A stretch of DNA of 64,000 bases from an uncultured bacterium (GCA_937949615.1 CALEDQ010000004.1:326326-390325), one strand, 5' to 3'; positions 34,786 through 63,326 are shown, counted from the stretch's first letter. Translations and numbers: made by a program. Notes: a model not told the origin generated them from the letters alone.

Positions 34786-34857
34786 TGGGGTGTCGTCTAA
34801 TGGCAGGACAGCAGTCTCTGGAACTGCTTATTGGGGTTCGAGTCCCTGCACCCCAGC
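34786..34857 (+). tRNA. tRNA-Gln (anticodon CTG)
   Basis: TGGGGTG...GCAGT-CTCTGGA-ACTGC...TTCGAGT...CACCCCA-G. Acceptor arms and 3' end resemble E. coli tRNA-Gln. Confidence 0.85.
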
Positions 34858-34862
34858 CGCAA
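34843..34862. repeat. attL: 20-bp direct repeat TCCCTGCACCCCAGCCGCAA (3' end of tRNA-Gln), repeated at 52870-52889
   Basis: Exact 20/20 match between the two positions, read directly from the sequence. Confidence 0.85.
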
Positions 34863-35051
34863 ACGGATCCGAAGAGATCCAAAAAGGTTCAAAATCCCGC
34901 ATCAATAGCGGGATTTTTCATTTTAGCGACACTTATTTGACCTCTTTGGTCTTATTTGATTGACCACCCCCTCCGGTGGTAATATCCGATGGTAATAATC
35001 CACCATTTTCAAGATTACCACCTTTTTGCAAACATTCACCGGAGGCGGCTT

Positions 35052-36314
35052 ATGGCAAAATATTTACTGACTGCCAGTCAGGTTAAAAGTCTGAAAACCA
35101 GACCGGGCAAAAAGATCACAAAGTATCATGACGGAGAAGGACTTTACCTCTGGGTCAATGACACCGATAATTACAAGCGCTGGTTCTTCCGCTACACAAA
35201 TAAGGCAGGCACCCGCAAAGATCTTTTACTCGGCACCTACCCGTTGGTGTCACTTGAGGAAGCTCGAAAACGAGCTGATGAAGCCAGAATCAACAAAGAG
35301 CGTGGTATTGACCCGGTCGAGCACCGCAGGGCAAAGAAGGTTGCCGAGAAAAGCAAGCTCACGAACAGTTTTGAAGTCGTGGCCAGGGAATGGTTCAACA
35401 CCAAGCGACTGCATCTATCAGAGTCAACCAGGACTCGTGACATGGCAAATCTTGAAAACGATATTCTGCCAGCAATCGGCAGCATGAGTATTTCTGAGAT
35501 AACACCGCCGATGATACTGGCAATGTTGAGAAAAATCGAAGCCCGCGGTGCTGGGCAAACTGCTCACCGCACCAGAAGTCAATGTTCGATGATATTCAGA
35601 TACGGCGTTGCCACCGAACGATGCAGTTCGGACCCGTGCAGAGACCTCGTCGACGCATTGAAGCCCACAACAAAGAAACATCGGGCAGCGATAACCGATA
35701 TGGCGAGATTTGCAGAGCTTTTGCGGGCAATCGACGGTTATCGCGGCACTGCGATAGTCAAAACTGCCTTAAAGCTGGCCCCACTGCTCGCAGTAAGACC
35801 AGGCGAACTGAGGTTTGCAAAATGGAAGGATATCAACTTCAATACCCGAGAATGGACGTTCCAGGCAGAAAAAACCAAGGTCGACCACATTGCCCCGTTA
35901 CCCAGGCAGGCAATAGAATTTCTTAACGATTTGAAGAAAATCACTTATGAAAACGACGAATCATATCTTTTCCCCCAGCTGGATCGCAAAGGCAGGGTCA
36001 TGAGCGAAAACACGCTCGTCTACGCCTTACGCGGCCTTGGGTTTTCGGGCGAAGAGATGACGGCACACGGATTCAGAACCACAGCAAAGACAGAACTCCT
36101 CGAACTTGGTTATCCGCTTGCCTGGCTTGAAAAAATGCTGGCTCACGCCCCGAAGGAAAGTCATGGCAGGGCATATAACCGAACCGAATATCGCCAGCAA
36201 CGCCATCAAATGATGCAGGCCTGGGCGGATTATATGGATGAATTAAGATCTGATGTAGAAAGAGACATCACAAAACTGAGAAAAAAACACACATATCGGG
36301 CAACTGAAGTATGA
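35052..36314 (+). CDS. int: Tyrosine-type site-specific integrase (P4-like, N-terminal DUF4102 arm-binding domain)
   Basis: N-terminus MAKYLLTASQVKSLK...GEGLYLWV is a DUF4102 pattern. Catalytic region ...AHGFRTT...LAHAPKESHGRAYNRTEY has R/H/R/Y. Sits next to the tRNA. Confidence 0.85.
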   Translation: MAKYLLTASQVKSLKTRPGKKITKYHDGEGLYLWVNDTDNYKRWFFRYTNKAGTRKDLLLGTYPLVSLEEARKRADEARINKERGIDPVEHRRAKKVAEKSKLTNSFEVVAREWFNTKRLHLSESTRTRDMANLENDILPAIGSMSISEITPPMILAMLRKIEARGAGQTAHRTRSQCSMIFRYGVATERCSSDPCRDLVDALKPTTKKHRAAITDMARFAELLRAIDGYRGTAIVKTALKLAPLLAVRPGELRFAKWKDINFNTREWTFQAEKTKVDHIAPLPRQAIEFLNDLKKITYENDESYLFPQLDRKGRVMSENTLVYALRGLGFSGEEMTAHGFRTTAKTELLELGYPLAWLEKMLAHAPKESHGRAYNRTEYRQQRHQMMQAWADYMDELRSDVERDITKLRKKHTYRATEV

Positions 36315-37183
36315 AAGAGCAAGATCGCCAGTTATATTTCCGTGATTTAGAGAAAGCTGTAGCCACCAAAGAAAAAGCGAAGCTGGTCTTGAAGCAGATA
36401 GAAGAACTAGACGAACAGTTTATATTCCCGCACTCTGAAAAATACCTCAACCTGTGCGAAGAATACGATAGTCTTATCAAAAAAATGGACTCTTTGCCCA
36501 GATTACCGTTCGATCCTTTCGACGCTGATACCTACGAAATCAAAATCGAAAAAGAGTTGATTTCCAGACGAAGAGAAGCCTTGGAATGGGCTAAGGAAAA
36601 CAATATTACTGAAGCTCCAGAATTGGCTAAATATAACTTTAGCCAGTTTAACGACCCCGCATCGCAGGTATGTCACGCTGAAATACTAAAGTTGATCGAA
36701 GCAAACTTGGATCAGCTGGACAGCCTCACTGTCCTGAACACGATTTTATCTGCCTTGAAAAGCAAACTCCTGCTGCCTGAAAAAATCGTTGACTGGTTTG
36801 AAAAAAAATTGTTACCGCTGAGACTTCATAAGAAGCCGTCTTTTAGTTCAAAAGAGAGTTTCGGGGAATTGCCAAAAAGAAATTCAACAGAAATTCGGTT
36901 GGCCAACGGAACCGCATTCAAAATATTCACCATTTTGGTGGAAGCCAAAAAAAACCCTGAGATCAAACTATCCAAACATGGAATACCTCGGGGGAGAGAT
37001 GTTAAACAAACATATGATCATATTTCCCAGGAGATGAAACGTAAACATAATATGACCTGTGGCCGGGGAAAGATTAAAACAATCCTGGATATGGTAGAAA
37101 AAAATCGAGAGGCGAAAAAGCTATATTTACTGGCCGAAAAATTATTTGAATTGCACGAGCTCCTAAAAGAAACAGGAATATAA
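36311..37183 (+). CDS. Hypothetical island protein, translationally coupled to int (ATGA overlap)
   Basis: 290-aa ORF with coiled-coil-like charged sequence. No motif recognised. Confidence 0.45.
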   Translation: MKEQDRQLYFRDLEKAVATKEKAKLVLKQIEELDEQFIFPHSEKYLNLCEEYDSLIKKMDSLPRLPFDPFDADTYEIKIEKELISRRREALEWAKENNITEAPELAKYNFSQFNDPASQVCHAEILKLIEANLDQLDSLTVLNTILSALKSKLLLPEKIVDWFEKKLLPLRLHKKPSFSSKESFGELPKRNSTEIRLANGTAFKIFTILVEAKKNPEIKLSKHGIPRGRDVKQTYDHISQEMKRKHNMTCGRGKIKTILDMVEKNREAKKLYLLAEKLFELHELLKETGI

Positions 37184-37321
37184 TTTTTTAGCTGTCAGTC
37201 TGCATCAGATCAAAGTGCGCAAATTTTTGCGTTTTTTCTTGCGCCTGTTTTCCCCGAAATCCTGATTTAATGAGGCTATAGGCTGTTTAAAGCCATTAAG
37301 TTTCATCAGGAGGTTTTTTCT

Positions 37322-37513
37322 ATGATCGATACACCCGTCCCTAAACGATATTTGCGCCTGAAAGACGTTTTACAGCGGATCCCAGTCTGCCGAACCACGC
37401 TTCTCACAGGCATTAAATCTGGTCGCTTCGAGCTCACACCAATCAAGAATGGTCGTTGCGTCTTTTACGATGAGGACGAGGTGAATCTGCTTCTTCAAAC
37501 AATCGCTGAATAA
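37322..37513 (+). CDS. alpA: AlpA-family phage transcriptional regulator / excisionase-like HTH protein
   Basis: KRYLRLKDVLQRIPVCRTTLLTGIKSGRFELTPIKNGRCVFYDEDEV matches the AlpA/Xis HTH. SD GGAGG is upstream. Confidence 0.75.
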   Translation: MIDTPVPKRYLRLKDVLQRIPVCRTTLLTGIKSGRFELTPIKNGRCVFYDEDEVNLLLQTIAE

Positions 37514-37623
37514 AAGCATCTCCACACCTCAACAAACCCAAAAGTAGCGTGCGGAAAGTAAAGGAGTAGGTAATCCGCACGCTACTCTACACAAAAAAGC
37601 CGCCTACAATAAGGAGAAACTGC

Positions 37624-38367
37624 ATGATCATTAAATTTTCTGCCATCTGCTCAGATAGCATTTTATCAAAATCTTTTCACCTCGGACCAGACGGAGAGCT
37701 CTTGCAAAAGGTGCGAGGTCAAATGACCGAGGGTTTTGTCGAAGTTCGCCAGGTAACTTCTCTGGCAGAGTTCGCTCAGGAACTGACAAATGCCACGCCA
37801 AATCATGCTTTTTGTTACGGAATCCCTCCTTTGCAGCCAGGAGAAATCAAAAAAATCGTAACCACAAACCAACTTCCTTTCGTGACCAATGCTATCGCCA
37901 GAAACAACGAGTTTTTTGAATGGTATCACGGTCCCAGCATTGTTATGATCGACTGTGATTCTCCACCCGATGGGTGCTATTATCCTCGCGACGAACTTGC
38001 TGAAATCTTTATCAAGGCCATTCCCGAGCTGGCGTATACCGAGATGCTTTGGGTTCCGAGCACTGGCAGCTGCATTTACAACACCGAGACTGGGTCTGAG
38101 TTACGCGGAATTCGAGGACAACGTTTTTATTTTGTTATCGACGACGGCCGCGAAATAGGGCGGATCGGTGAAACTTTGTTCCAAGCCCTATGGCTGATGG
38201 GTTACGGCTGGATAAAGATCGGGAAAAAGGGAGCACTGCTGAAACGCACGCTCATCGATGATTCCGTCTATCAACCATGTCGCCTCGACTTTGTTGGTGG
38301 CGCATACTGTGAACCACCACTGGAACAACGTCGCGGTGAGCCCATTTTAATCCAGGCACGCAATTAA
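37624..38367 (+). CDS. Hypothetical protein upstream of the primase; possibly a separate primase-polymerase-like catalytic module
   Basis: Position and stop overlap with the primase gene. Contains an acidic IVMIDCDSPPDG stretch. No confident motif. Confidence 0.35.
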   Translation: MIIKFSAICSDSILSKSFHLGPDGELLQKVRGQMTEGFVEVRQVTSLAEFAQELTNATPNHAFCYGIPPLQPGEIKKIVTTNQLPFVTNAIARNNEFFEWYHGPSIVMIDCDSPPDGCYYPRDELAEIFIKAIPELAYTEMLWVPSTGSCIYNTETGSELRGIRGQRFYFVIDDGREIGRIGETLFQALWLMGYGWIKIGKKGALLKRTLIDDSVYQPCRLDFVGGAYCEPPLEQRRGEPILIQARN

Positions 38368-38382
38368 AGGGAGACGCCACAT

Positions 38383-40335
38383 ATGTTAATAAGTTCATCT
38401 GTTAAAAATCTTTCCATTGCTCAAAAACATCGTTATAACGTACTGGTTAATGAAGCAAAGCTAGCATTGAAGCCAGAATCGGAAAAAATTAAAAATAAAT
38501 ATATCGATACTGAAGTGGACAAAACGCCTGACGATCAGAAGGACACGGTCAGAAAACGGTTAACGGCTATGCTCAATGATGAGGGCGTTTTATACGGCGA
38601 TCACGTGCTTGCATGCCCCAGTTCCGATGGCACGACTAAGAGTTTTTGTGTTGCTGACATTTTTGGCGACAGGAAACATTATGACAAAATGAGGGTTCTC
38701 GACCCTATCGATCAAGAATACGACAACGGTCGTCCAGTTGCTATCATCAATGCTTCAGGGCCGAGACCTTCTATTTACTCGTTCGCGCACGGCGGGAAAA
38801 AATATCTTTTGAACCGCGAGTCACTGGACCAAGCGGGTAATTTGTGCTCTCGGGCTCTTTACAACCCGCACAAGAACACGGACATGGGTAATGCTGAGCG
38901 TTTCCAGCGCCTAGCAAACAAAAAGGCTATTTTTGTTGAGAACATGGGCTGGTTCATGTGGGACGGCAGGCGATACGTGTCCAATCCAATGGGCGTAAAA
39001 GAGCTCTACAAAAGCCTTGTGATCAAGAAACTGTATGAAGAAGTCTCTAGCAGGGGTAAAGAACACGACACACAAGGCGTAAAAGACCTTGTTAGCTGGG
39101 CTAAACGGAGTGAGTCTGACAAGAACGTTATTTCAGCCTTGAATTCTGCTGCAAGTATGCCAGATTTTTTTGTCAAATCGGAAATGCTGGATGCCGACCA
39201 AATGCTTTTGAACGTCGAGAATGGGACCATCAATTTACGAACGGGAGAGTTACGCGAACATGATCCGGACGACCTAATTACCAAACTCGCACCAGTTGTC
39301 TTTGATCCTGAAGCACAAACCCCTACATGGAAACGAGTTTTGGACAGAATTTTCTCCAACAACCAAGATATGATCGGTTTTTTTAAGCGCGCATTTGGTT
39401 ATTCTCTGACAGGTCTGATCAATGAACAATGCTGGTTTATACTTCATGGCGCAGGTGCCAACGGCAAAAGCCTGACCATCAATTGCTTGAAGGAAATGAT
39501 CGGCGACTACTCTGGGCCGGCCGCACCAGAATTACTGATGGCATCTCGAAGCGGTAGCGATCGACACCCGACTGAGTTGGCTGATTTAAGAGGAAAAAGA
39601 TTGGTTGTCTGTCAGGAAACCGAGGAAGGTCGACGACTATCCGAGGTGTTGGTCAAGCAAATGACAGGTGGAGACGCAATCAAGGCCCGATTAATGCGAC
39701 AGGATTTTTTTGAATTTTTGCCAACTCATAAACTCTGGCTTGCAACCAATCACAGGCCCATTATCAAAGACACAACTGAGAGCACATGGCGACGAATACG
39801 CTTGATTCCTTTTGAAATCGTTATTCCTGCGACCGAAAGAGACAAAGACCTGCCTGAAAAACTGAAGAAAGAATGGCCTGGAATATTAAACTGGGCCTTG
39901 GAAGGGTGTTTGGAATGGCAACGTAGTGGTTTAAATCCCCCAACCGAAATTATGAACGCGACCACAGAATACCGCGGTGACCAAGACCTTCTGGCAAAAT
40001 TCATCTCGGAAGAATGTTACTTACATTCGAGCGTGAGAACCAAGCTGAGTGACCTTTATGAAGCCTACACCAAATGGTGCGAAGCCAATCACGAACAAAC
40101 GAAAACCAATAATGCCTTCAGTCGAGCCCTGGCAGAAAGAAGTTTCGAGAAAGAGGTCAGTGGCGTAACTTATTATAGAGGCATTGGGTTGAAAATTGAA
40201 ATACAAACCTCTTTACCAGACCCGGAATATGAAAAAATCCTCGCAGAAAGAGTCTGTGTGGGCGTTAAAACCGGGGACGTGGAAGAAGCCATTATACCTG
40301 AGTCGAAGAAGGAACCCGAACAGACGAAACACTAA
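38383..40335 (+). CDS. P4-family phage/plasmid primase with D5_N and SF3 helicase/NTPase C-terminal region
   Basis: Walker A HGAGANGKS. Walker B RLVVCQETEE. Conserved ...LWLATNHRP...WRRIRLIPF. Confidence 0.8.
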   Translation: MLISSSVKNLSIAQKHRYNVLVNEAKLALKPESEKIKNKYIDTEVDKTPDDQKDTVRKRLTAMLNDEGVLYGDHVLACPSSDGTTKSFCVADIFGDRKHYDKMRVLDPIDQEYDNGRPVAIINASGPRPSIYSFAHGGKKYLLNRESLDQAGNLCSRALYNPHKNTDMGNAERFQRLANKKAIFVENMGWFMWDGRRYVSNPMGVKELYKSLVIKKLYEEVSSRGKEHDTQGVKDLVSWAKRSESDKNVISALNSAASMPDFFVKSEMLDADQMLLNVENGTINLRTGELREHDPDDLITKLAPVVFDPEAQTPTWKRVLDRIFSNNQDMIGFFKRAFGYSLTGLINEQCWFILHGAGANGKSLTINCLKEMIGDYSGPAAPELLMASRSGSDRHPTELADLRGKRLVVCQETEEGRRLSEVLVKQMTGGDAIKARLMRQDFFEFLPTHKLWLATNHRPIIKDTTESTWRRIRLIPFEIVIPATERDKDLPEKLKKEWPGILNWALEGCLEWQRSGLNPPTEIMNATTEYRGDQDLLAKFISEECYLHSSVRTKLSDLYEAYTKWCEANHEQTKTNNAFSRALAERSFEKEVSGVTYYRGIGLKIEIQTSLPDPEYEKILAERVCVGVKTGDVEEAIIPESKKEPEQTKH

Positions 40336-40465
40336 CCACCTGGAGGTTTGGAGGATTTTTTTCAAATTCCGGTATACTTCCCAGTATTTATTTCTAGGGG
40401 TTTATATCGGGAAATGATCAAAAACCTCCAATCCTCCATAAAACTGTATTTTTCTTTTTGTTTAA

Positions 40466-43400
40466 CTACGCAGCCCACTCGGCGCAGAGCATTTCTGCCT
40501 GTGTTAAAACGGTTCTGGTCGCCTCTTCCTGGAGATCCGGTGGGTAACCGTGCTTTTTCAGGATGCGCTTCACCATGACTTTGATCCTGGCTCTGGCACT
40601 TTCACGAACGGTCCAGTCGATCGATACGTTTTTACGCACCTGGGTAACCAGTTCAGCGGCGATGACTTTCAGCTCATCATTCCCCATGGCTTTGACTGCA
40701 CTTTCGTTGGCAGCCAGAGCGTCATAAAAGGCGATTTCATCATCGTTAAGGCCAAGGTCTTCTCCGCGCTTCGTTGCCGCGCTCATATCTCTTGCCAGGT
40801 TTATCAGTTCTTCGATTATTTCCTGGGTTGCGATAGCCCGGTTATGATAGGCATTGAGCGTCTTCTGCAGCATCTCACTGAACTGCCGGCTCAATACCAG
40901 ATTCCGCGTTGACCTGGCCTTGATTTCATCTTTCAATAACTTCGCCAGCAGTTCCGCTGCGACGTTTTTATGCTTGAGGCCGCGCACTTCGTTGAGAAAC
41001 TGATCCGACAGAATCGAAATATCGGGCTTTTTAAGGCCAGCGGCGGCAAAGACATCGATGACGCCTTCGTCAGTCATGATCGCCTGCGACACCAGCTGCC
41101 GCACTGCATGATCGAGTTCTTCCGGGGTCTTCTGTGAGGCAGTGTTTTTGGCAAACTGTGCTTTTATAGCCTGGAAAAATGCCACATCGTCGCGAATTTT
41201 CAGAGCTTCATCCGAGGCAGCACAGAGAGCGAAGGCCCTCGAAAGCTCGGTTATTGTCTTAACAAAGCGCTGCTTGCCGTTTTCCTGCTGCAGAATGTGT
41301 TCCTGACCAGCCGGAAGCAGTGCAAGTTTCTGGGCCGGGGTTCCGCTGACCCAGGCATCCCAGTCGAAACCATGCAGCATATCGCAGGCAATATTATATT
41401 TTTCCAGCATGACGGCGATTGCTTTTTTGGTGTCAATACTGGGCGAGCCCTTACCGCCGCTCTGAGTATAGGTCGCCAGCGCATGTTTGAGCTGATCGGC
41501 AAGACCCAGATAATCAACGATAAGTCCACCCGGTTTATCGCGAAACACGCGGTTCACTCTGGCGATTGCCTGCATAAGGCCATGGCCGCGCATGGGTTTA
41601 TCGGCATACATGGTGTGCAGGCATGGCGCATCAAAGCCGGTCAGCCACATATCACGCACAATGACAATTCTGAACGGGTCTTTGCTGTCTTTGAAACGAT
41701 TAGCCAGAGCCCGGCGACGCAATTTATTACGTATATGCTTCTGCCATTCGGGGCCATCATCGGCACTTCCGGTCATGACGATTTTAACGACGCAGGATTT
41801 CTTTCTTTCGGCCTCAACATCATCTTCCGCATCACCGGCCCAGCCCGGTCGCAATTTAATTATGGCAGCAAAAAGATCGACGCAGATACGGCGGCTCATG
41901 CAGACAATCATGGCTTTCCCGTCCATGGCTTCGAGCCGGCGCTCAAAATGATCGACGATATCGCGGGCAATCAGAGCAATGCGCTTCGGGTCGCCAACCA
42001 GAGCTTCAAGCGCTGCCCACTTCGATTTAAGCTGCTGCTTTTTCTCGTCTTCTTCGCCTTCGGTGATCTCTTCGAACTCTTCGTCGATATGCGGCAGCTC
42101 GGCAGCGTTCAGTGAAAGCTTTGCAATACGGCTTTCATAATAGATCGGCACGGTCGCGCCATCGGCGACTGCGCGTTGAATATCGTAGATACTTATGTAA
42201 TCACCAAATATCGCCCGGGTATTGGCATCGGTCTGCTCGATCGGCGTGCCGGTGAATCCGATAAAAGAAGCGTTGGGAAGGGCGTCGCGCATGTTGCGAG
42301 CCAGGCCGTCTATCAGGTCATACTGACTTCTGTGCGCTTCATCAGCAATAACAACGATATTCTGCCGATCTGAAAGCAAATTTACTCTGCTGCCGCGTTC
42401 TTCCGGCATGAATTTCTGGATCGTTGTAAAAATTACCCCGCCGCTGGCGACTTTTAATAAAGTTCTCAAATGCTCGACCGACTCGGCCTGAACCGGCATC
42501 TGATGCAATATTTCATGGCAGCGCTGAAACTGCCCGAACAGCTGGTCATCGAGGTCGTTTCGATCAGTCAGCACTACGATAGTAGGGTTCTGCATCGCAG
42601 GGTGTCTTACGATTCTGGCGGCATAGAACAGCATGGAAAAGCTTTTTCCTGAGCCCTGGGTATGCCAGACAACCCCGGCCCGTCGGTCGCCCTTTTTGCC
42701 GCTCTGCATCGGCCCGGCCCAGTAAGTACCGGAATCCTCCCTGAAGGTGTTATCAATCATATTGCTGGCCCTGATCGTTTCCTGCACCGCCATGTTAACG
42801 GCATGAAACTGATGATACCCGGCAATGATCTTATTCAACCGGTCACTGTCAGTATCTTCTTCGAAAACGATAAAATGCTGCAGCAGGTCCAGGAAACGCT
42901 GTTTTTCAAAGACTTCTCTGATCATCGTTTCAAGTTCGAGCGAAATTTGCTGCGCTTCGACATCTTCTCCGACCGACCGCCAGACTTTAAACCATTCCTG
43001 CGACGCAGACAGTGAACCGATACGCGCCTGCAGGCCATCAGAAACCACAAGCACTTCGTTATAATTCATCAGTGAGCTGATCTGCGCCTTATAAGTCTGC
43101 AGCTGTTGATACGCAGACCAGATCGTAGCGTTCTCGTCAGCGGCGTTCTTGAGTTCGATAACACCCAAAGGCAGGCCATTCAGGAAAATAACTATGTCAG
43201 GTCGCCGGTTATGTTGCCCTTCAGTCACTGTGAACTGGTTCATTGCCAGCCAGTCATTGGCATCTGGTTTATCGAAAGAGACAAGCCTGACACGATCCCC
43301 GGCGATACTGCCGTCAGGTCGTTTATACTCGACTTCGACACCATTGCGCAGCATGCCGTGAAAACGTCTGTTATTCTGCAGTAACGACGGGCTGACCTGG

Positions 43401-43624
43401 TGGCAGACTTTGCTGAAGGCATCTTCTCGCGCCGCCGCCGGAATCCTAGGATTCAGCCGTTCTATTGCATTCCGCAGCCGATCATAAAGAATGACATCTT
43501 TGTAAGAGTCTCTTTCGGCCCCCGGTTCGCCGGGAGCGCATTCCGGGCCGTATGCTGTCGGATAACCAAGCTCTGAGAGCCAGGTCATTGCTGCCTGTTC
43601 AACTGTTGATTCGTTAAATGTCAT
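40466..43624 (-). CDS. hsdR: Type I restriction enzyme R subunit (HsdR)
   Basis: N-terminal [23 protein letters not shown]2 helicase motifs ([15 protein letters not shown]). Large size (1052 aa). Confidence 0.9.
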
Positions 43625-43664
43625 GTTATGCTTCCAAAGCGCAGTAATAACAGGTTTTTTCCGG

Positions 43665-43749
43665 CAAATGTTCGGAGCTCGACGACAAATGTACAGAGCT
43701 CGAAGCTAAATGTGCGGAGTTCGAGAACAAATGTTCAGAGCTCTGTTCG
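43665..43749. repeat. Four tandem imperfect 21-22-bp direct repeats (cAAATGTnCrGAGyTCGAnnn) in the hsdR upstream region
   Basis: caaatgttcggagctcgacga / caaatgtacagagctcgaagct / aaatgtgcggagttcgagaa / caaatgttcagagctctgttcg, lying between hsdR and the GIY-YIG gene. Confidence 0.7.
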
Positions 43750-43777
43750 TAATATTTTGATGTTGTCGTCATAACAT

Positions 43778-54855: not shown

Positions 54856-54952
54856 GTCACTCCAGGGCGCAATTTTGGATAAAATTGCTGACAAGGGCGC
54901 GGGCAGAGAGTAATATGGTGGCACGACACCATAAAAATTGCAGAGGTAGCCA

Positions 54953-56410
54953 ATGCTGACCGGGGAAATACGCAACAAAGTCGATGCACTGTGGACCGCA
55001 TTCTGGACCGGCGGCATCGCCAATCCGCTGACCGTTATCGAACAGATTTCATACCTGCTGTTCATCAAGCGTCTCGATGATATTCACACGCTGAAAGAAC
55101 TGCAGGCCAACCGAACCGGCAAGCCGGTCAAAGACCCGATATTCAACGATAAACAACAGCATCTGCGCTGGTCGAAGTTCAAGCACCTTGAACCGGGCGA
55201 AATGCTCGGGCTATTTCAGACAGAAGTTTTTCCGTTCATCAAGAACATGGCGAGCGCCTCTGACACCACATTTGCCAGAGCCATGGCCGATGCCACCTTT
55301 ATTATACCGAAAGCCAGTCTGCTGGCACAGGCGGTCGAACTCATCGAGGATATTCCGATGAAAGACCGTGATACCAAGGGCGATGTTTACGAATACATGC
55401 TCAGCAAGCTTTCTACTGCCGGCCAGAACGGCCAGTTCAGAACGCCGCGCCACATCATCAAAATGATGGTCGAGCTGATGCAGCCGAAAATCAAAGATTT
55501 CATCTGTGACCCGGCCTGCGGCACCGCCGGCTTTCTGGTTGCGGCGGGTGAATACATCAGAACCCACCACGAAATCGACTATCACGCGGCCGAAAACCGC
55601 GAGCATGTGAACGGCCGCCTGTTCAACGGTTTCGACTTCGACACGACCATGCTGCGCATCGGCAGTATGAACATGATGATGCATGGCGTCGAGAACCCGC
55701 ATATCATGTATAAAGACTCGCTGGCAGACAGCAACAAAGAGTCTGAGCAATACACCCTGATTCTTGCCAATCCGCCGTTCAAGGGCAGTCTCGCCGAAAA
55801 CGAAGTTTCGAAGAAGCTGCTCGAAACCGTAAAAACCAAGAAAACCGAGCTGCTGTTTCTGGCCCTGATGCTGCGCCTGCTGAAGGCCGGCGGCCGCTGT
55901 GCCGTCATCGTTCCTGACGGGGTGCTTTTCGGCTCATCAAAAGCCCATCTCGACATTCGGAAAGAGATCATCGACAATCATCGCCTTGAAGCGGTCATTT
56001 CGCTGCCTGCCGGGGTTTTCAAGCCTTACGCCGGCGTCAGTACCGGCATCATGGTTTTCACCAAAACCGGCACCGGTGGCACTGACAATGTCTGGTTCTA
56101 CGACATGCAGACCGATGGTTTCAGTCTTGACGACAAGCGCACCGAGATTGCCGACAACGATATTCCGGATGTTATCAGGCGCTGGCATAATCTCGCGGCC
56201 GAAAACAGCCGCAAGCGCACCGACAAATCTTTCCTGGTGCCCGTCGATGACATCAGAAAAGAAAAATACGACCTGTCGATCAACCGCTACAAACAGATCG
56301 TCTACGACGAAGTCAAGTATGACAAGCCCAAAGAAATCCTGGCCGAAATCATGCAGATCGAAAAAGAAATCCAAAAAGGCCTCGAAGAACTCGACGGTAT
56401 GCTGGGATGA
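54953..56410 (+). CDS. hsdM: Type I RM DNA methyltransferase subunit (HsdM), second system
   Basis: HsdM_N-like N-terminus. QFRTPRHI. DPACGTAGFL. ILANPPFKG is the NPPF catalytic motif. Confidence 0.9.
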   Translation: MLTGEIRNKVDALWTAFWTGGIANPLTVIEQISYLLFIKRLDDIHTLKELQANRTGKPVKDPIFNDKQQHLRWSKFKHLEPGEMLGLFQTEVFPFIKNMASASDTTFARAMADATFIIPKASLLAQAVELIEDIPMKDRDTKGDVYEYMLSKLSTAGQNGQFRTPRHIIKMMVELMQPKIKDFICDPACGTAGFLVAAGEYIRTHHEIDYHAAENREHVNGRLFNGFDFDTTMLRIGSMNMMMHGVENPHIMYKDSLADSNKESEQYTLILANPPFKGSLAENEVSKKLLETVKTKKTELLFLALMLRLLKAGGRCAVIVPDGVLFGSSKAHLDIRKEIIDNHRLEAVISLPAGVFKPYAGVSTGIMVFTKTGTGGTDNVWFYDMQTDGFSLDDKRTEIADNDIPDVIRRWHNLAAENSRKRTDKSFLVPVDDIRKEKYDLSINRYKQIVYDEVKYDKPKEILAEIMQIEKEIQKGLEELDGMLG

Positions 56411-57174
56411 AGCTAATTTACATCGATGAATCAGGGGACACAGGTTTTAATCTGAATGACCAGCAACAGCCTATATTTGTTTTAACAGCCTTAGTAATAC
56501 CAGATTTAATGTGGCCACATCTTGAAAGCGAATACAGGTATGCAATCAATGAATTTTTTCCTGATGGAATACCGGAAGATTTTGAGCTTCATGTTACAGA
56601 CATGAAGGCTAGAAAAAACCATTATAAAAATTTCGACAAAGAACTTGGTGCAAAGTTTAGAGACAGAGTCCTTGAATTTATTTCCGGGCTGGGAGTAAAG
56701 ATTTTTTACCGAAGAATAATAAAAAAACAGTTTCAAAAGTTTTGCGAAAAGCGTTTCGGTATTGTTAGGCTGAGCCCATATCTCATGGCGCTTTCGATGC
56801 TTTGGTTTGAAATTAACAAATATCTTAACGCCCAAGAAGATTTTGGTATGCTGATCTTTGATGACAACAAACATTATTTATCAGACGTAGAAAAAGCCAT
56901 TCGGTCTCTTCGACTTGATCTTAGATTCATGCTGTCGAACAATAAGCTTATTGAAAAAGGCTTCTTTGTTGATTCAAAAAAAAGCATTCCAATTCAATTA
57001 ACAGACCTGCTTGCTTACTATATCAGAAAATATGAGGAACATAAGTTTGGGAAAACAGTAAGCAAAACTGACCAAGACTGCTTTTCTGCGCTAGAAGGAA
57101 TTGCACAGATGGGAACAAAAGTACCAGCCGAATTTAATGAGTTGTTAAAATGGGCAGAAGAAAATTGGAGATAA
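56407..57174 (+). CDS. DUF3800 family protein inserted between hsdM and hsdS
   Basis: N-terminal LIYIDESGDTGF is the signature DUF3800 start. Start overlaps the hsdM stop (ATGA). Confidence 0.7.
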   Translation: MKLIYIDESGDTGFNLNDQQQPIFVLTALVIPDLMWPHLESEYRYAINEFFPDGIPEDFELHVTDMKARKNHYKNFDKELGAKFRDRVLEFISGLGVKIFYRRIIKKQFQKFCEKRFGIVRLSPYLMALSMLWFEINKYLNAQEDFGMLIFDDNKHYLSDVEKAIRSLRLDLRFMLSNNKLIEKGFFVDSKKSIPIQLTDLLAYYIRKYEEHKFGKTVSKTDQDCFSALEGIAQMGTKVPAEFNELLKWAEENWR

Positions 57175-57289
57175 AAAAGCGGCCGCCTCTTTCGATGGAA
57201 CCGTCAATTGACGATTCACTGGCAGTCGCTGTTCAGAATATACGCAATGCGTGTAAATTTGTCAACAAGTATGAAAGGAAGGGCTGCGT

Positions 57290-58465
57290 ATGAGTTGGCC
57301 TGTAAAGCCATTAGGGCAAATTTGCGGAATAGTAGCAGGCCAGTCGCCGCCATCAGAAACTTACAACAAAAATCGGGATGGCATGCCTTTTTTTCAGGGA
57401 AAAGCAGATTTTGGAGAACTATTTCCAACCGTCAGAACATGGTGCTCAAAGCCAAACAAAGTAGCCGAACCGAATGACATTCTGATCTCAGTGAGAGCAC
57501 CAGTAGGAGCAACGAATATCTGTAATGTTACTGCCTGTATTGGTCGCGGTTTGGCTGCCATAAAACCTTCAGAAAAAGTTGTCCAGAAGTATTTACTGTA
57601 TTACTTTCGTTATTTTGAGCCTATTTTATCAGCATCAGGGAACGGTGCAATTTTTTCAGCAATAACAATGTCTGATTTAAAGGAAGTCCAAATCCCACTG
57701 CCGCCACTGGAAGTGCAGAAAAAGATTGCGGCGGTGCTGGAGAAGGCCGATGAGTTGCGACTCAAGCGTGAAGAACAGATAAAGCGCCTCGACGACCTGC
57801 TGCAGGCAACCTTCCTCGACATGTTCGGCGACCCCGTCACCAACCCGAAGGGCTGGCCCGTGAAAAAACTTCAGGATTTATTAAAGGATAAAAAAGACCT
57901 TGTGGACGGCCCATTTGGCTCTTCTGTAAATACCCAAACAGACTATATTGAAAATGGTGAGATACCAGTTATCAGAACAAAAAATGTTGGACTTCTTTGT
58001 TTTAAGCCAGAAGACCTGAAATTCATGACTCGCGAAAAGTATGAAACGGTCAAGAGAAGCCAAGTTCTACCGGGCGATATAGTTCTTACAAAAGTTGGGA
58101 CAATTGGTAACTTATGTCTATTTCCATCTGTTTTTGAAGAAGCAGTGTTGTCAACAACAGGTAGTTGTAGGATCAGGCCCAACAAAGATGCGTTGGAACC
58201 GCTCTTTTTGCTTCATTATCTATACCATTATCGCCCCAGAATGTTGGAAATTGCTTCAACAGCTGTTCAAGCCTTTCTAAATATGAATCATATTAAAAAC
58301 TTTGATATCTTTATTCCGCCCGCTGATAGGCAGAAAAGGTTTGGCGAAGTTTGCAATAGTATTACGTTAAAAGCCAGTAAGTTGGAAAACGGGAGTTCTA
58401 GGATTTCTAGTCTCTTCAACTCCCTCATGCAGCGGGCGTTCAAGGGGGAGCTGGAACTGAGATAA
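57290..58465 (+). CDS. hsdS: Type I RM specificity subunit (HsdS), second system
   Basis: Two TRDs with conserved spacer and coiled coil (LPPLEVQKKIAAVLEKADELRLKRE; LMQRAFKGELEL). Confidence 0.85.
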   Translation: MSWPVKPLGQICGIVAGQSPPSETYNKNRDGMPFFQGKADFGELFPTVRTWCSKPNKVAEPNDILISVRAPVGATNICNVTACIGRGLAAIKPSEKVVQKYLLYYFRYFEPILSASGNGAIFSAITMSDLKEVQIPLPPLEVQKKIAAVLEKADELRLKREEQIKRLDDLLQATFLDMFGDPVTNPKGWPVKKLQDLLKDKKDLVDGPFGSSVNTQTDYIENGEIPVIRTKNVGLLCFKPEDLKFMTREKYETVKRSQVLPGDIVLTKVGTIGNLCLFPSVFEEAVLSTTGSCRIRPNKDALEPLFLLHYLYHYRPRMLEIASTAVQAFLNMNHIKNFDIFIPPADRQKRFGEVCNSITLKASKLENGSSRISSLFNSLMQRAFKGELELR

Positions 58466-58530: not shown

Positions 58531-61500
58531 GTGATGAACAACGATAATACACAGAGCGATAAACAGCAGAATCAGAGACAGAGTAACTTCAGTTTTATCG
58601 ATAATAAACTGAAGCAGATCAGAGAGTTTGCGCAGAAAGCCGAACTGCGCGGCCGGCTCGATGCCAGGTATGCGTGCTTTCAGGCCAGGCTGACGGCAGA
58701 AACTGCTCTTAAATGGATTTTCAAAGCTGATCCCGAGCTGTCTCTGCCGTATAACACAATGCTCAGCAATCTGATCAATGATGCGGGTTTCCAGAAGATT
58801 GCCCCGATTCAGGCCAAACGCAGTCTCACCATCATTCAGAAATACGGCAACCTGGCCGCGCACAGCGAACATGCAATAATGGCCCAGGATGCCGTTCTGG
58901 TCATTAAGCAGCTGCACAGCTTTCTATTCTGGCTGCACCGCACCTATTTCGATGTGAACCTGCAGTCAGACTTCGACGAAAAACTCATTCCCGATGCCGG
59001 TGATATTGCCAAAACCAGCAGAAACAAGATTCTTGAGCTCGAACAAAAACACGAAGACGAAGAGAAAAAGCTCAAAGAAGCCCTTGAGGCAGAAAAAGCA
59101 GATAAAGAAGCCTATAAGGCAAAGCTGGCAACCCAGGAAGCAGAAATTGCGCAGCTGAAAGCTCAGATCGCAGCCAAAAAGGCTGAAGCAGAGGCTGTTC
59201 CTGATACACATGATTACTCTGAAGCCGAAACCAGAAAACTGCTTATCGATGTATTGCTGAAGGAAGCAGGCTGGCATAAGGGCTCCCCCGGCCTGAAAGA
59301 AGAATACGAACTCGATGGCGTAGACCGCAACAAGAATTACACCGGCACCGGTTTTGCCGACTACGTTCTCTTCGACGACAACGGCCTGCCGCTCGCGGTC
59401 ATCGAAGCCAAGAAAACCACCAAAGATGCGAAGATCGGCAAATACCAGGCACTCGATTACGCCAACGCCCTCGAAAAGAAGTTCAAGCAGCGCCCGGTCA
59501 TCTTTTATACCAACGGTTACGAAATCTACATCTGGGACGACCACTTCTACCCCGAACGCAAGATTCAGGGCTTCTACAAAAAAGACGAGCTGCAGCTTGC
59601 CATCGAACGCAGAAAAACACGAAAGTCGATTCTCAACCCGGCTATCAACCGCAAAACGGTCGAACGCCCATATCAGCATCTCGCCATTCGGGCAGTTTCC
59701 GAACATTTTGAGACGGGCAATCAAAGAAGAGCCCTGCTGGTTATGGCTACCGGCTCAGGCAAAACCAGACTTACCATCGCTCTGGTCGAAGTGCTGCAGA
59801 AAGCCAACTGGGCCAAGCGCGTGCTGTTCCTCTGCGACCGTGATTCGCTGGTTAAGCAGGCAAAAGGCGCGTTCACGAAGTTCTTGCCGAACTGCCCGGC
59901 GGCTGATTTGAGAGATGCGAAGTCTGACAATCTTTCCAGGGTCTGCCTGTCAACCTATCACACGATGATGAACCTGATCGATGAGTTCAAAGACGGTGAG
60001 AGACTGTTTTCGCCAGGCCATTTCGATCTGCTGGTCATCGACGAGGCTCACCGCAGCATCTATCAGAAGTTCGGAGCGATCTTCGATTACTTTGATTCGT
60101 TCCTGGTCGGCCTGACCGCGACGCCCAGAGATGAAGTCGACAAGAACACCTACCAGATGTTCAACCTGACCAAAGAAGCCGGCCCGGTGTTCGGCTATGA
60201 CCTCGGCGAAGCCATAGATCAGGGCTACCTGCTGAATTATTACAAGGCGGCAGTGTCGACGAAACTCAGCCGCGAAGGCCTTACCTACTCGAAACTCAGC
60301 GACGAAGACAAAGAAGAATACGACCGGCACTTTATCGACGAAGTCACCGGCGAAAGGCCCGAAAAAGTCGGTAAAGAGGCGATCAACAAATGGCTGTTCA
60401 ATATTCCGACCGTCGACAGCTTTTTAAAAGATCTCATGGAAAAGGGCATCAAAATCGCAGGCGGCGACCGGCTTGGCAAAACCATCATTTTCGCGCGTAA
60501 CAGCGACCATGCAAAGTTTATAGTCGAAAGATTCGACGCCAATTATCCGCAATATAAAGGGCATTTCTGCGCTCAGATCGATTACACGCTTGGCAAAGAC
60601 GCCGAAGGCATGATCGACAATTTCAAGAAAGCCGACGGCATGCCACAGATAGCGGTTTCGGTAGACATGCTCGATACCGGAATCGATGTTCCTGAGGTTG
60701 TTAATCTCGTGTTTGCCAAACCCGTTTATTCGAAGGTGAAGTTCTGGCAGATGATCGGCCGCGGCACGAGAAAATGCGAGAATCTGTTCGGCCCCGGTGA
60801 TGACAAGAAGTGCTTCTACGTCTTCGATTACTGCGAAAATTTCGAATTCTTCGAGACCAACCCCGATGGCGTTGAGAGTAACGCGGTGATACCGTTGAGC
60901 CAGCGGATCTTCAGAAATCGTCTGCTACTGGCCGACCTGCTGCAGGATGACAGCAGCGAAGATTCGGTGGCAATCAGAAAAGAGTTTCTGGATAACCTGC
61001 ATGAATATGTGTCGGGCATGTGCGATGCGAACTTTCTGGTGCGGCCGCATCTGCAAAGCGTCACGAAGCTGAAAAACCGGGAAACCTGGGAAAAGCTCGA
61101 TTCTGAGCTGAAGGCGGCGGTGGCGAAAACTATCTCAGGCTTACCCAGCCAGCTGGAACAGGATGATGAATATGCCAAACGATGGGATCATCTGCTGCTG
61201 AAAACAGAGCTGGCGCTGCTTGAGAAGTCTGGCGAATACGTTTCCCTGATGAAGAAGATCAGAAAGATTGCCGACAAGCTCGAAGACAAGACGACGATAC
61301 CAGACGTCAAAAAACAGCTGGAATTCATTCAGGCGATCAAGACCGATGAATTCTGGGAAGGCATGAACCTTAAAGCTCTCGAAGAGATCAGAAAGCGTCT
61401 CAGACTGCTGATCAAATACATCGATCCGGGCGAGAAGCAGATCGTTTATTCGAACTTCAGCGACACCCTGACTGCGCCTGCAGTATTCGAGCCAGGCACC

Positions 61501-62031
61501 GAGGCATTCAAGAACGACGAACTGGCAGCCTACCGACAGAAAATGAACGCTGTAATCGATCAAAACCTCGATAAAGAGGTGATCTGGAAGGTCAGATGTA
61601 ATCGACCTCTGACTGCTGCCGACCTGAAACAGCTCGAAAAAATTCTCGAACTCAGCACATCAGAAGACAAAGAGTTGTTCAGGGAAGCTTATCAGAGCGG
61701 TTTCCGGGCAAAGACCGGCACAGACAACTCCAGTCTTGAGCTGCTGATCAGGTCTATCGTCGGCCTGGATCGAAAAGCGGTCGAAAAAGAATTTGCGGAT
61801 TTTATCGAGAAATCGAACCTTACCTCATTACAACTGGCCTTTGTGAGCAAGATCATCGACTACTTCGCCGAAGACGGCTTTGTCAGGGATGACATTCTCT
61901 ATGAACCGCCATTCAGCGACATGTATCACGACGGCCCCGAGGGCCTGTTCGGCGACCGCGTCGAAACCCTCTTCGCCCGTATCCAGCGATTAAACGGCCT
62001 GAAATCTGCCGACCGCCCGGCAAAGAATTGA
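58531..62031 (+). CDS. hsdR: Type I restriction enzyme R subunit (HsdR) with an N-terminal DUF4145-like extension
   Basis: Nuclease core GFADYVLFDDNGLPLAVIEAKK. Helicase motifs MATGSGKT and DEAHRS. An extra ~230-aa N-terminal domain plus a coiled coil. Confidence 0.9.
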   Translation: MMNNDNTQSDKQQNQRQSNFSFIDNKLKQIREFAQKAELRGRLDARYACFQARLTAETALKWIFKADPELSLPYNTMLSNLINDAGFQKIAPIQAKRSLTIIQKYGNLAAHSEHAIMAQDAVLVIKQLHSFLFWLHRTYFDVNLQSDFDEKLIPDAGDIAKTSRNKILELEQKHEDEEKKLKEALEAEKADKEAYKAKLATQEAEIAQLKAQIAAKKAEAEAVPDTHDYSEAETRKLLIDVLLKEAGWHKGSPGLKEEYELDGVDRNKNYTGTGFADYVLFDDNGLPLAVIEAKKTTKDAKIGKYQALDYANALEKKFKQRPVIFYTNGYEIYIWDDHFYPERKIQGFYKKDELQLAIERRKTRKSILNPAINRKTVERPYQHLAIRAVSEHFETGNQRRALLVMATGSGKTRLTIALVEVLQKANWAKRVLFLCDRDSLVKQAKGAFTKFLPNCPAADLRDAKSDNLSRVCLSTYHTMMNLIDEFKDGERLFSPGHFDLLVIDEAHRSIYQKFGAIFDYFDSFLVGLTATPRDEVDKNTYQMFNLTKEAGPVFGYDLGEAIDQGYLLNYYKAAVSTKLSREGLTYSKLSDEDKEEYDRHFIDEVTGERPEKVGKEAINKWLFNIPTVDSFLKDLMEKGIKIAGGDRLGKTIIFARNSDHAKFIVERFDANYPQYKGHFCAQIDYTLGKDAEGMIDNFKKADGMPQIAVSVDMLDTGIDVPEVVNLVFAKPVYSKVKFWQMIGRGTRKCENLFGPGDDKKCFYVFDYCENFEFFETNPDGVESNAVIPLSQRIFRNRLLLADLLQDDSSEDSVAIRKEFLDNLHEYVSGMCDANFLVRPHLQSVTKLKNRETWEKLDSELKAAVAKTISGLPSQLEQDDEYAKRWDHLLLKTELALLEKSGEYVSLMKKIRKIADKLEDKTTIPDVKKQLEFIQAIKTDEFWEGMNLKALEEIRKRLRLLIKYIDPGEKQIVYSNFSDTLTAPAVFEPGTEAFKNDELAAYRQKMNAVIDQNLDKEVIWKVRCNRPLTAADLKQLEKILELSTSEDKELFREAYQSGFRAKTGTDNSSLELLIRSIVGLDRKAVEKEFADFIEKSNLTSLQLAFVSKIIDYFAEDGFVRDDILYEPPFSDMYHDGPEGLFGDRVETLFARIQRLNGLKSADRPAKN

Positions 62032-62068
62032 AAAAAGTGGAAATTTTGTGAAAAAGAGGATAAAGTTG

Positions 62069-62084
62069 ACTTAACTTTAAAGTT
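62069..62084. promoter_or_regulatory. 16-bp perfect palindrome TTAACTTTAAAGTTAA overlapping the higB ribosome-binding region (putative TA operator)
   Basis: Read directly from the sequence, 5 nt before the higB ATG. Confidence 0.5.
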
Positions 62085-62088
62085 AATT

Positions 62089-62511
62089 ATGCTTTTATTA
62101 GATCTTCTTACTGACGATGAATATATATGGAAGTTTTATGTATTGGCCAGATCTGAGGAAGATTGCGAATTACACGACTTCCTGAATTCATTGTCTGTAA
62201 AAGATAAGGAGGCCTGGAGCGGTTTGCTGGCAATTATGGAAACAATGGCGGCAGCACCTGAAGGGCCGAGGCTGATGGATTCACTGTCTCACGAAATGGG
62301 AAGCGCAAAATATAAAATTTACAGATTTGAAAAAGGCAGATTAAGAATCGCCTGGTTTTACGGAGAAGGTAATAAAGTCGTCATCTGTTCGCACGGGTAC
62401 TACAAAAAATCTCAAAAGACTCCGGAAAAAGAAATAAAAAAGGCAGAAAAGAATGTTGAGGCCTACCTCAGAGCGGTAGAAGGAAAAGGTGAAAGAAATG
62501 GGAAAAATTGA
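62089..62511 (+). CDS. higB: HigB/RelE-superfamily toxin (Gp49-like)
   Basis: KIYRFEKGRLRIAWFY...VICSHGYYKKSQKTPEKEIKKAEK is a Gp49/HigB pattern. Overlaps the downstream antitoxin gene. Confidence 0.7.
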   Translation: MLLLDLLTDDEYIWKFYVLARSEEDCELHDFLNSLSVKDKEAWSGLLAIMETMAAAPEGPRLMDSLSHEMGSAKYKIYRFEKGRLRIAWFYGEGNKVVICSHGYYKKSQKTPEKEIKKAEKNVEAYLRAVEGKGERNGKN

Positions 62512-62920
62512 CTTCAGAAAGCTCATAAATGAAGCAAAAGAAAGCGAAGCATACCTGGTGGAAAAGGCTTCCATGTCTTTTCTGGTTAAGGTCTGGAAGC
62601 TGATGCGGGAAAAAGAAATAACCCAGAAACAGCTTGCAGAAAGAGCCGGCCTGAAGGAGTCGTATATCTCGCGAATCTTTTCAAGAAAAGGCAATCTTAC
62701 TCTTGCAACCATGGTTAAACTGGCAAAATGCCTCAGTGCTGATATCGAGGTTGGGGTTGAAGCCACAAAAACAGCCTCGAAAAAGCTCGATTATATTTTT
62801 GAAAAACAAGCTCCCACATCTGAAGAAAAAGTAATTTATACAAACATTCACCACCTCAATACCAGTCACTGGAAAACCAGCGAGGATGAAGGCTATGAAA
62901 GAATCAGTCCTGCAGCTTAG
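62489..62920 (+). CDS. higA: HTH-XRE antitoxin (HigA-like) with a ~50-aa C-terminal extension (putative chaperone-addiction region)
   Basis: LMREKEITQKQLAERAGLKESYISRIF is an XRE-family HTH. A C-terminal tail lies beyond the HTH. Overlaps both neighbouring genes. Confidence 0.7.
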   Translation: MKEMGKIDFRKLINEAKESEAYLVEKASMSFLVKVWKLMREKEITQKQLAERAGLKESYISRIFSRKGNLTLATMVKLAKCLSADIEVGVEATKTASKKLDYIFEKQAPTSEEKVIYTNIHHLNTSHWKTSEDEGYERISPAA

Positions 62921-63326
62921 AGACTACTTTATAACTAAAACATCTGTTGAACTGAACCAGGAATTCAGACTTGATGAACCATCAAGTCTGAATGTTGGGG
63001 ACTTAAGCCTGGAGATCAGCTCAAATACTCTTGCTCACCCCGACACCAGAGAAGAAATTTTCAAAGTTGAACTGAGAGTCGCAGTAAAAAGCGAAAATCT
63101 TAAAAAATGCAATATCCCCTATTGTTTCGATATTTCCTCAGTAGGAATTTTCGTGCTTGGGGAAAGCTGCCAGGAAAATAGAGAAAAAGTCGCGGTAATA
63201 AATGGCGCGTCAATACTGTTTTCATCTGTAAGAGATTATCTCGCCGGAATTACCGGGCAAGGCCCTTTTCGGCGAATAGTTCTGCCAACAGTTGATCTGA
63301 GAAGCCTGGAAAAGAACGAAAAATGA
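62886..63326 (+). CDS. SecB-like chaperone (third component of the toxin-antitoxin-chaperone module)
   Basis: Collinear with E. coli SecB: EIFKVELRVAVKSE...CFDISSVGIFVLGE...ILFSSVRDYLAGITGQGPFRRIVLPTVDL. Confidence 0.65.
   Translation: MKAMKESVLQLRDYFITKTSVELNQEFRLDEPSSLNVGDLSLEISSNTLAHPDTREEIFKVELRVAVKSENLKKCNIPYCFDISSVGIFVLGESCQENREKVAVINGASILFSSVRDYLAGITGQGPFRRIVLPTVDLRSLEKNEK

Follow-up and report, generated by a model that had tools for sequence, protein, structure and literature searches.

The question raised by this locus is whether the genes assembled behind a tRNA-Gln gene of an uncultured bacterium form one mobile island, a mobile element beside ancestral core genes, or two separate acquisitions. 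The DNA analysed, here referred to as the window, is a stretch of 64,000 nucleotides (GCA_937949615.1, CALEDQ010000004.1:326326-390325), and all positions are counted from its first letter. A first-pass annotation had described positions 34843–63326 as a composite defence island of about 28 kb at a tRNA-Gln hotspot. We made an inventory from open reading frame (ORF) listing, ARAGORN tRNA search and family scans with Pfam, PADLOC, PHROGs and NCBIfam, and then compared the locus with its relatives, referred to below by contig numbers (L). As a result, we consider it very probable that two accessory units lie next to each other here, at a site of the Candidatus Rifleibacteriota (Ozemobacteraceae/Rifleibacterium-like) genome that has long served as a hotspot of integration and defence. 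With the same high confidence, unit 1 (part 1; 34,863–52,889, 18,027 bp) is taken as a mobile integrative element carrying a Type I restriction-modification (RM) system, RM #1, and unit 2 (part 2; 52,890 to about 63,380, about 10.5 kb) as a build-up of defence cassettes in the chromosomal flank that does not itself move, namely a RhuM gene, RM #2 with a nested DUF3800 gene and a toxin-antitoxin-chaperone (TAC) module.

The integration target is a tRNA-Gln(CTG) gene (34786–34858, plus strand; ARAGORN, Rfam tRNA 54 bits), whose 3' end forms the left attachment (att) site, attL. This site (34837–34862, plus strand), found by repeat search and by the junction in contig L019, is one copy of a direct repeat of 26 bp, within which a core of 20 bp, TCCCTGCACCCCAGCCGCAA, is exact. 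The other copy, attR (52864–52889, plus strand), is identical to attL at 24 of the 26 positions, and its two mismatches lie at the 5' edge, that is, on the element side, as expected if they derive from attP. The native terminator hairpin of the tRNA follows attR (52888–52909). Moreover, L019, which comes from the same population, holds the exact empty site: its positions 1–2674 equal window 55537–52864 and its positions 2649–3500 equal window 34862–34011, both stretches sharing a single att copy, with tRNA-Gln intact. The inserted DNA therefore measures 18,027 bp, and because the junction is exact, the att pair is no chance match and unit 1 is mobile, currently so in this population. The att repeats that the first-pass annotation had placed around the first part are thus confirmed. 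So is its composite nature, since L019 has no 18-kb element yet keeps RhuM and the start of HsdM2, which makes the two parts separate units.

Next to both att sites lie copies of a short motif, GGTGGTAAT. The window contains five copies where 0.17 would be expected, and four of these are paired near attL and attR. By motif count, the left arm (34972–35022) has GGTGGTAAT and GATGGTAAT at a distance of 13 bp, as well as an inverted copy, and the right arm two GGTGGTAAT copies 13 bp apart (52791–52816, plus strand). Such sites also adjoin att in L029 and L145, and the GGTGGTAAT sites are plausible arm-type sites for the integrase. For unit 2, the earlier statement that it has no integrase or att of its own was found to be correct. 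Contig L004 prolongs the window by 8.5 kb, with genes for proteins of 340, 54 and 446 aa followed by ankyrin-repeat (Ank), Na/Ca-exchanger, FloA and flavoprotein genes; in the joint stretch of 52.9–72.5 kb (about 19 kb past attR) there was no integrase or further att copy, nor was a third att copy or degenerate tRNA fragment found right of part 2 in the window or the 8.5 kb beyond.

Whether unit 2 belongs to the core genome was judged from relatives. A genome scan for FloA gave 20 loci, whose synteny was established by tblastn and blastn. Between the conserved flanks, about ten different configurations were found, enriched in defence genes, and the stretch from the LF313/tRNA-Gln flank to the Ank/Na-Ca-exchanger/FloA flank varies in every Rifleibacteriota species sampled, as the hotspot proposal had it. 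In L032, L040 and L041 (FloA 75–81%) nothing lies between the flanks: Ank is about 0.8 kb from the LF313/ECF-sigma block, and there is no counterpart for the entire 32 kb or so that extend in the window from the tRNA as far as the 446-aa gene. A sister species (L020) has, after tRNA-Gln, a different Type I RM system (HsdM 60% to HsdM1), Abi_C and small genes, and no integrase. L029 (FloA 92%) carries an element of the same family as unit 1 with a full YhcG/PDC-S02 nuclease, followed by ankyrin-repeat, EamA and Sel1 genes, and L030 (FloA 91%) a PLD nuclease, a RhuM fragment and an HsdR1-like gene. Another Rifleibacterium species (L145–147, core about 90%) has tRNA-Gln, an insertion sequence (IS), full YhcG and then RM #2 with DUF3800 (95%). 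The same RM #2 cassette was also found in an unknown organism (L144), among unrelated neighbours. The right end of unit 2, at about 63,380, comes from such comparisons as well, the 340/54/446-aa genes beyond it being common to the nearest relatives; L026 (FloA 99%) shares them at 86% DNA identity, its similarity ends at window 63383, and its remaining 540 bp or so past the break-point gave no match to the TAC genes. The segment of 52.9–63.3 kb is thus not conserved as core among the relatives, and these comparisons support unit 2 as accessory.

The flank itself also differs among species. A DUF3106/anti-sigma/ECF-sigma/LF313 block (window 31205–34722) lies between a radical-SAM gene and tRNA-Gln here and in L020, is absent there in L145 (5280–5291), and stands beside Ank in L032, L040 and L041; in L041 (14826–20616) it is on the other side of tRNA-Gln/tRNA-Thr. 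This shifting means that the position of the tRNA relative to core genes has moved.

Traces of decay and transfer were found both in the window and in its relatives. Between attR and RhuM there is a remnant of a YhcG/DUF1016 (PDC-S02) nuclease of 29 codons, covering residues 77–105 (52963–53049, plus strand; tblastn 86%, E 6e-12 against L029), of which intact genes exist in L029 and L145, 84% identical to each other. In L043, from another species (FloA 92%), the start of RhuM is kept, and RM #2 and TAC are replaced by three pieces (L043 10024–10324): 159 bp of the SecB 3' end (window 63164–63322), 83 bp around the HsdR2 stop (61981–62063) and 61 bp upstream of HsdM2 (54885–54945), joined at short microhomologies. 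The persistence of gene fragments shows that L043 has lost DNA here, rather than the window having gained it. The scars and the RhuM region have 90–93% DNA identity, as against 77–81% for FprA, FloA and the Na/Ca exchanger (64–81% with the poorly conserved Ank); being more alike than core genes, they point to a more recent shared ancestry, that is, transfer, which indicates a later date for part 2 than for the split between the species. In L145, two copies of att plus terminator (5411–5460 and 8358–8407), the second preceded by an arm site, bound a 2.9-kb remnant with the IS and full YhcG and no integrase. ORF6N genes and truncated integrases also occur by tRNA-Gln/tRNA-Thr in L033, L041 and L145. 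These sequences support repeated integration, decay and cassette turnover, and horizontal transfer, the decay of elements and deletion at microhomologies would have built and eroded unit 2. The suggestion in the first-pass annotation of an older island or tandem accretion is supported by the YhcG remnant, the att-bounded remnant in L145, the same-family element in L029 and the L043 scars.

Other explanations have to be weighed against this two-unit arrangement. If only the 18-kb element were foreign and 52.9–63.3 kb were ancestral core encoding RM and toxin-antitoxin genes, one would understand why part 2 has no integrase or att, why it is present in element-bearing and empty-site strains alike, and why its GC content is unremarkable. 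However, part 2 is absent between the flanks in L032, L040 and L041; L020, L029 and L030 have other genes in its place, and in L043 only scars of it are left; moreover, the scars are more similar across species than the core genes are, and the RM #2 cassette has unrelated neighbours in L144. We regard this explanation as largely refuted and its probability as very low. Slightly lower still is the probability that the whole 28 kb or so is one large mobile island moving as a unit: the parts are contiguous and both defence-rich, but what the empty site lacks is only 18,027 bp, part 2 being still there, and attR is followed by no more att in the next 19 kb. The source being a metagenome assembly, the juxtaposition might also be an artefact of assembly or binning; in fact, this population has been assembled many times, and assemblies made independently from different samples (ENA, Logan, JGI, NCBI) show the same junctions at 99.9–100% identity, so that the chance of an artefact is next to nil. 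Several points nevertheless weigh against two accessory units. The comparison genomes are all metagenome assemblies, several of them short contigs, and some of the absences are contig ends; unit 2 has no boundary repeats and takes its limits from alignment break-points with relatives; its GC content (0.40–0.53) is not clearly unlike the rest of the window, and composition, tried as a sign of foreignness, was not decisive. In addition, L145 5650–5799 matches window 54467–54615 in an order permuted relative to the YhcG remnant of the window, and whatever concerns activity (excision, methylation, restriction, toxin function) is inferred.

A further alternative concerns unit 1, which could be a decayed prophage rather than a satellite-like or mobilisable element. 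Its phage-type replication and recombination genes (PHROGs) would agree with that, as would its D5 helicase, which has hundreds of relatives in viral contigs (593 in IMG/VR, phage-type, all with at most 44% identity). Against it, the element still excises or integrates with precision in the population (L019), all unit 1 ORFs are intact, and the compact architecture without structural genes recurs in L029, L023 and L127–L134. Among the ORFs of 34.9–52.9 kb, Pfam and PHROGs gave no capsid, tail or terminase match, nor any relaxase, coupling protein or type IV secretion gene. The DUF932 query had no relatives in IMG/VR; with that and the distant D5 matches, the element is not a catalogued virus. 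We therefore think a decayed prophage unlikely, if less so than the other alternatives, and regard unit 1 as working like a defence-carrying satellite or mobilisable island, as its gene content suggests.

The genes of unit 1 begin with a tyrosine integrase of 420 aa (35052–36314, plus strand; Pfam Arm-DNA-bind_3, Phage_int_M, Phage_integrase; gene call in L001), 194 bp past tRNA-Gln. It would recombine the attP of the element with the 3' end of tRNA-Gln(CTG), and would recognise the GGTGGTAAT sites at either end through its arm-binding domain. The integrase stop is overlapped by the start of a 290-aa protein (36311–37183, plus strand) that matched nothing in Pfam, PHROGs, PADLOC or NCBIfam. 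The sole candidate for an excisionase or directionality factor is a 63-aa ORF (37322–37513, plus strand; gene call in L001), whose match to the helix-turn-helix (HTH) family HTH_17 is weak and below threshold (E 0.043). The replication module comprises a protein similar to a primase N-terminus (37624–38367, plus strand; phrog_16593 'DNA primase', E 8e-49, profile positions 1–226 of 823) and a D5_N/DUF5906/Pox_D5 primase-helicase (38383–40335, plus strand; Pfam; PHROGs E 3e-125). After RM #1, ORFs of 137 aa (plus strand) and 81 aa (minus strand) without a family match (47762–48549) mark the edge of a variable cargo slot. Then follows a recombination module on the minus strand, with an exonuclease (48909–49763; PHROGs E 2e-54, weak Cas4-like hints in PADLOC), an ERF single-strand annealing protein (49765–50589; Pfam E 4e-28) and a DUF932-like protein (50586–51566; E 2e-4, below the cut-off). 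The last gene encodes a 161-aa protein, p161 (52179–52664, plus strand), with no family match and with an orthologue, 71% identical, at the same position in the L029 element. Unit 1 would thus replicate through its own primase-like protein and D5 helicase and recombine through ERF, exonuclease and DUF932, and its transfer would probably depend on a helper phage or another route. No family for helper-packaging hijack (capsid-size redirection, terS) was matched in Pfam, PHROGs or NCBIfam, several small ORFs being without assignment and cos/pac sites not having been searched for.

The relatives of these genes suggest that unit 1 belongs to a family of small integrative elements whose cargo slot varies. 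The L029 element has p161, DUF932, the arm sites and the same att, besides its full YhcG. The DUF932-ERF-exonuclease module recurs at 66–98% identity in L023 and L127–L133; in L023 (16572–20825) it has 66–73% identity and stands beside a different integrase at tRNA-Arg(CCG). Digester metagenome contigs (among L127–L134 and L142) carry it as a mosaic, for example with ERF at 98% beside exonuclease at 68%. Past the exonuclease, Sel1-repeat and unknown genes and then an HsdM1-like start are found in L134, and a P-loop NTPase with weak Double-GTPase-2 and Schlafen-helicase matches in L142.

The two Type I RM systems are complete and on opposite strands, as first annotated, with hsdM, hsdS and hsdR intact in both; the respective Pfam matches are N6_Mtase/HsdM_N, Methylase_S and HSDR_N/ResIII/SWI2_SNF2, and PADLOC gave MTase_I/REase_I. 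RM #1, in the cargo of unit 1 (40466–47530, minus strand), comprises HsdM (45959–47530), HsdS (44626–45975) and HsdR (40466–43624; PADLOC REase_I, 1122 bits). It would restrict unmethylated incoming DNA and help to keep the element, as judged from known RM biology. Between hsdS and hsdR lies a gene for a 283-aa protein (43778–44629, minus strand), a PADLOC PDC-S14 match (E 1e-106). The first-pass annotation had reported a GIY-YIG nuclease here; the gene is indeed present, but Pfam scores its product as DUF4357 only, and the GIY-YIG model PF01541 reaches 12.9 bits (E 0.14), below the cut-off. The protein carries GVY, YVGEG, R79 and E112 motifs, and NCBI names close homologues 'GIY-YIG nuclease family protein'. 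With these motifs, that naming and the sub-threshold match, it might be a GIY-YIG nuclease. Its AlphaFold2 (AF2) model is poor, with a mean predicted local distance difference test score (pLDDT) of 58 and values below 50 in the N-terminal half, too weak for comparison with the GIY-YIG fold; PDB sequence searches with this protein and with DUF3800 gave no meaningful match. We also observed that PDC-S14 has more than 6000 homologues, many 70–75% identical across distant phyla and one from a Methanosarcinaceae archaeon, an unusually high conservation for a gene without an assigned role.

In unit 2, the RhuM, DUF3800 and TAC genes were each recovered where the first-pass annotation had them (by Pfam, and by PADLOC for RhuM and TAC). 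The RhuM-family protein (53209–54252, minus strand) is the PADLOC candidate PDC-S05 (Pfam PF13310 E 2e-113; PADLOC E 2e-158). RM #2 (plus strand; Pfam, PADLOC) comprises HsdM (54953–56410), HsdS (57290–58465) and HsdR (58531–62031) with an EcoEI_R_C C-terminus. The TAC module (plus strand; Pfam, and PADLOC PD-T4-9_C) consists of a Gp49/HigB-like toxin (62089–62511; Pfam Gp49 E 1e-9), an HTH antitoxin (62498–62920; HTH_3 E 8e-11) and a SecB-like chaperone (62895–63326; SecB E 7.5e-10, 39 bits), and these ORFs overlap. For the SecB-like protein the NCBIfam SecB match is below the cut-off, and the database gene call uses another start. The antitoxin has a C-terminal tail of about 50 aa past the HTH, where a chaperone-addiction element would sit. 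TAC systems have been reported to defend against phages (PMC9519451; bioRxiv 10.1101/2024.02.24.581848). The toxin-antitoxin-SecB-like order, the antitoxin C-terminal extension and the PD-T4-9_C match are shared with HigB1-HigA1-SecB-like of M. tuberculosis and with CmdTAC/PD-T4-9, whereas the CmdTAC toxin is an ADP-ribosyltransferase, not Gp49/HigB-like, and the SecB match here is weak. Gene order and antitoxin tail would thus fit the TAC family.

The DUF3800 gene (56407–57174, plus strand; PF12686 E 1e-21) is nested between hsdM and hsdS of RM #2, and the order HsdM-DUF3800-HsdS-HsdR is also found in L144 and L145. A gap of 115 nt separates DUF3800 from HsdS, whose ATG at 57290 has a Shine-Dalgarno sequence and from whose residue 1 tblastn alignments to L145 and L144 start. 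The AF2 model of DUF3800 has a pLDDT of 86.6, and its best Foldseek matches are RNase HII/H2/H3 (E 1e-4, probability 1.0). Of the N-terminal acidic residues, D7 is invariant and E8 nearly so. The predicted fold is RNase-HII-like, and an RNase H-type fold agrees with the literature (PMC7736814, PMC13594972). In L145 (12164–12680), a DUF4160/DUF2442 pair lies between hsdS and hsdR of the RM #2 cassette, with ORF6N and an integrase fragment following, so that this pair makes a third nested small module. Extra genes nested in Type I RM operons are known, for example that of the PrrC anticodon nuclease in the EcoprrI locus. Like PrrC, the genes in the window are extra nuclease-type genes inside hsd operons (PDC-S14 between hsdS and hsdR, DUF3800 between hsdM and hsdS); they differ in belonging to other protein families, any restraint by the RM complex being hypothetical for them, and in that this DUF3800 subfamily is also found outside RM operons.

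Directly 3' of DUF3800, the spacer holds a conserved structured element of 53 nt (57178–57230, plus strand), with a 6-bp outer helix and an 8-bp hairpin. Copies were located at L144 5003–5055, L145 10772–10824, L148 5800–5852, L152 4395–4448 and L153 4774–4826. Compared with L144, the 115-nt spacer is 82% identical, as against 70% for the DUF3800 coding sequence and 75–78% for the neighbouring hsd genes; compared with L145, there is no excess conservation (spacer 88.9%, coding 89.4%). The folding z-score of the spacer is -2.5, and 2 of 200 shuffles fold as well. The 53-nt core accompanies every DUF3800 homologue fetched, either directly 3' of the gene or overlapping its last 16–35 nt, in contexts that include a different Type I RM system (L152) and housekeeping genes (L148–151, L153–158). 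In a hand-made structural alignment, both partners are altered in three hairpin pairs, one C-G pair of the outer helix has become U-A, and two positions have an isosteric exchange (G.U/A.C or C.A/U.G). A covariance model, trained on the same sequences, found the element only beside DUF3800 genes in the 519 kb of fetched DNA, scoring 69–86 bits on the gene strand and about 21 on the other strand. Rfam 15 at E<=10 returned no DUF3800-* family or other match for the spacer alone or for L148, and for the whole window only the tRNA matched. A pattern scan of viral contigs for the 53-nt motif and a DUF3800 tblastn against viral contigs and plasmids both gave 0 matches.

Eleven unrelated structured RNAs, DUF3800-I to -XI, have been linked to DUF3800 genes (Weinberg 2017, PMC5737381). 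The present element resembles them in being structured and physically linked to a DUF3800 gene; it differs in matching no Rfam 15 family at E<=10 and in its constant placement on the gene strand, where it either overlaps the stop codon or follows it directly. Seen in four independent lineages only, it is suggestive and may be a further DUF3800-associated RNA. We also noticed that in two diverged lineages (L148–L151 and L153–L158) DUF3800 is fixed in the order FAD-binding oxidoreductase, DUF3800, PCMT and RecG; by this housekeeping placement, the DUF3800 subfamily is not always in a defence context. The pair of DUF3800 and the 53-nt element is thus known from two Type I RM operons that are unrelated, and from a stand-alone locus. 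A tentative idea, which we hold to be possible and rather doubtful, is that they form an RNA-protein module, in which an RNase-HII-like nuclease travels with an RNA acting as its inhibitor, substrate or guide, and that nesting in hsd operons marks a second line of defence firing when restriction is disabled. If this were true, a further and tractable RNA class absent from Rfam would be added to the DUF3800-associated RNAs; and if the linked element is real at all, the role of DUF3800 proteins and of their associated RNAs becomes more directly testable.

Two features elsewhere in the window may be mentioned here. The stretch 22800–28100, of low GC content (0.39–0.43), lies between tRNA-Ser(CGA) and tRNA-Leu(GAG) and contains sulfatase and TetR genes together with small ones; its counterpart in L145 measures about 1 kb and has a nucleotidyltransferase/NTase_sub_bind pair, and L020 has a serine recombinase by tRNA-Leu. 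It is probably a second variable spot. Within the gene for the 313-aa flanking protein (33520–34461) there are two 121-bp copies (33791–34040), 95% identical and 129 bp apart, and a 270-aa variant of the protein in the database (86% identity) fits a variation in repeat number.

The main finding has documentary value, in that the build-up of a defence locus is cleanly resolved through an empty site, arm sites, relatives and scars, in a phylum without cultured genetics. A mobile element carrying an RM system has landed beside an older defence pile, and this pile appears to turn over by transfer and microhomology deletion faster than species diverge. Moreover, the window, L144 and L145 are natural contrasts, with the same cassette having, lacking or exchanging its nested genes, and are useful for the PADLOC candidates PDC-S14 and PDC-S05/RhuM and for DUF3800.

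How the locus compares with known systems remains to be considered. Defence islands are a notion reportedly due to Makarova 2011, and defence cargo in phage satellites (P4-like elements and phage-inducible chromosomal islands, PICIs) is said to have been described in Rousset 2022 and Fillol-Salom 2022. In contrast to integrative conjugative elements, the unit 1 ORFs include no relaxase, coupling protein or type IV secretion gene. Unit 1 is like P4-like and PICI satellites in its small size, integrase, D5-type primase-helicase, defence genes in a variable cargo slot and lack of virion genes; it differs from them in that psu/sid/delta, terS and capsid-remodelling genes were not detected, in having the ERF/exonuclease/DUF932 module instead and in having no known helper. 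With tRNA-integrated genomic islands and defence islands, the region shares an integrase by a tRNA, a direct repeat of the tRNA 3' end, presence/absence polymorphism, and RM, toxin-antitoxin and candidate defence genes clustered between conserved flanks. It differs from these islands in its uncultivated host phylum, in having a mobile element and a static accretion side by side, and in that the hotspot tRNA changes place relative to the ECF-sigma block among species. The locus is therefore of a known kind, a tRNA-linked mobile island adjoining a defence hotspot, and is new only in its host phylum, its element family and some of its cargo combinations.

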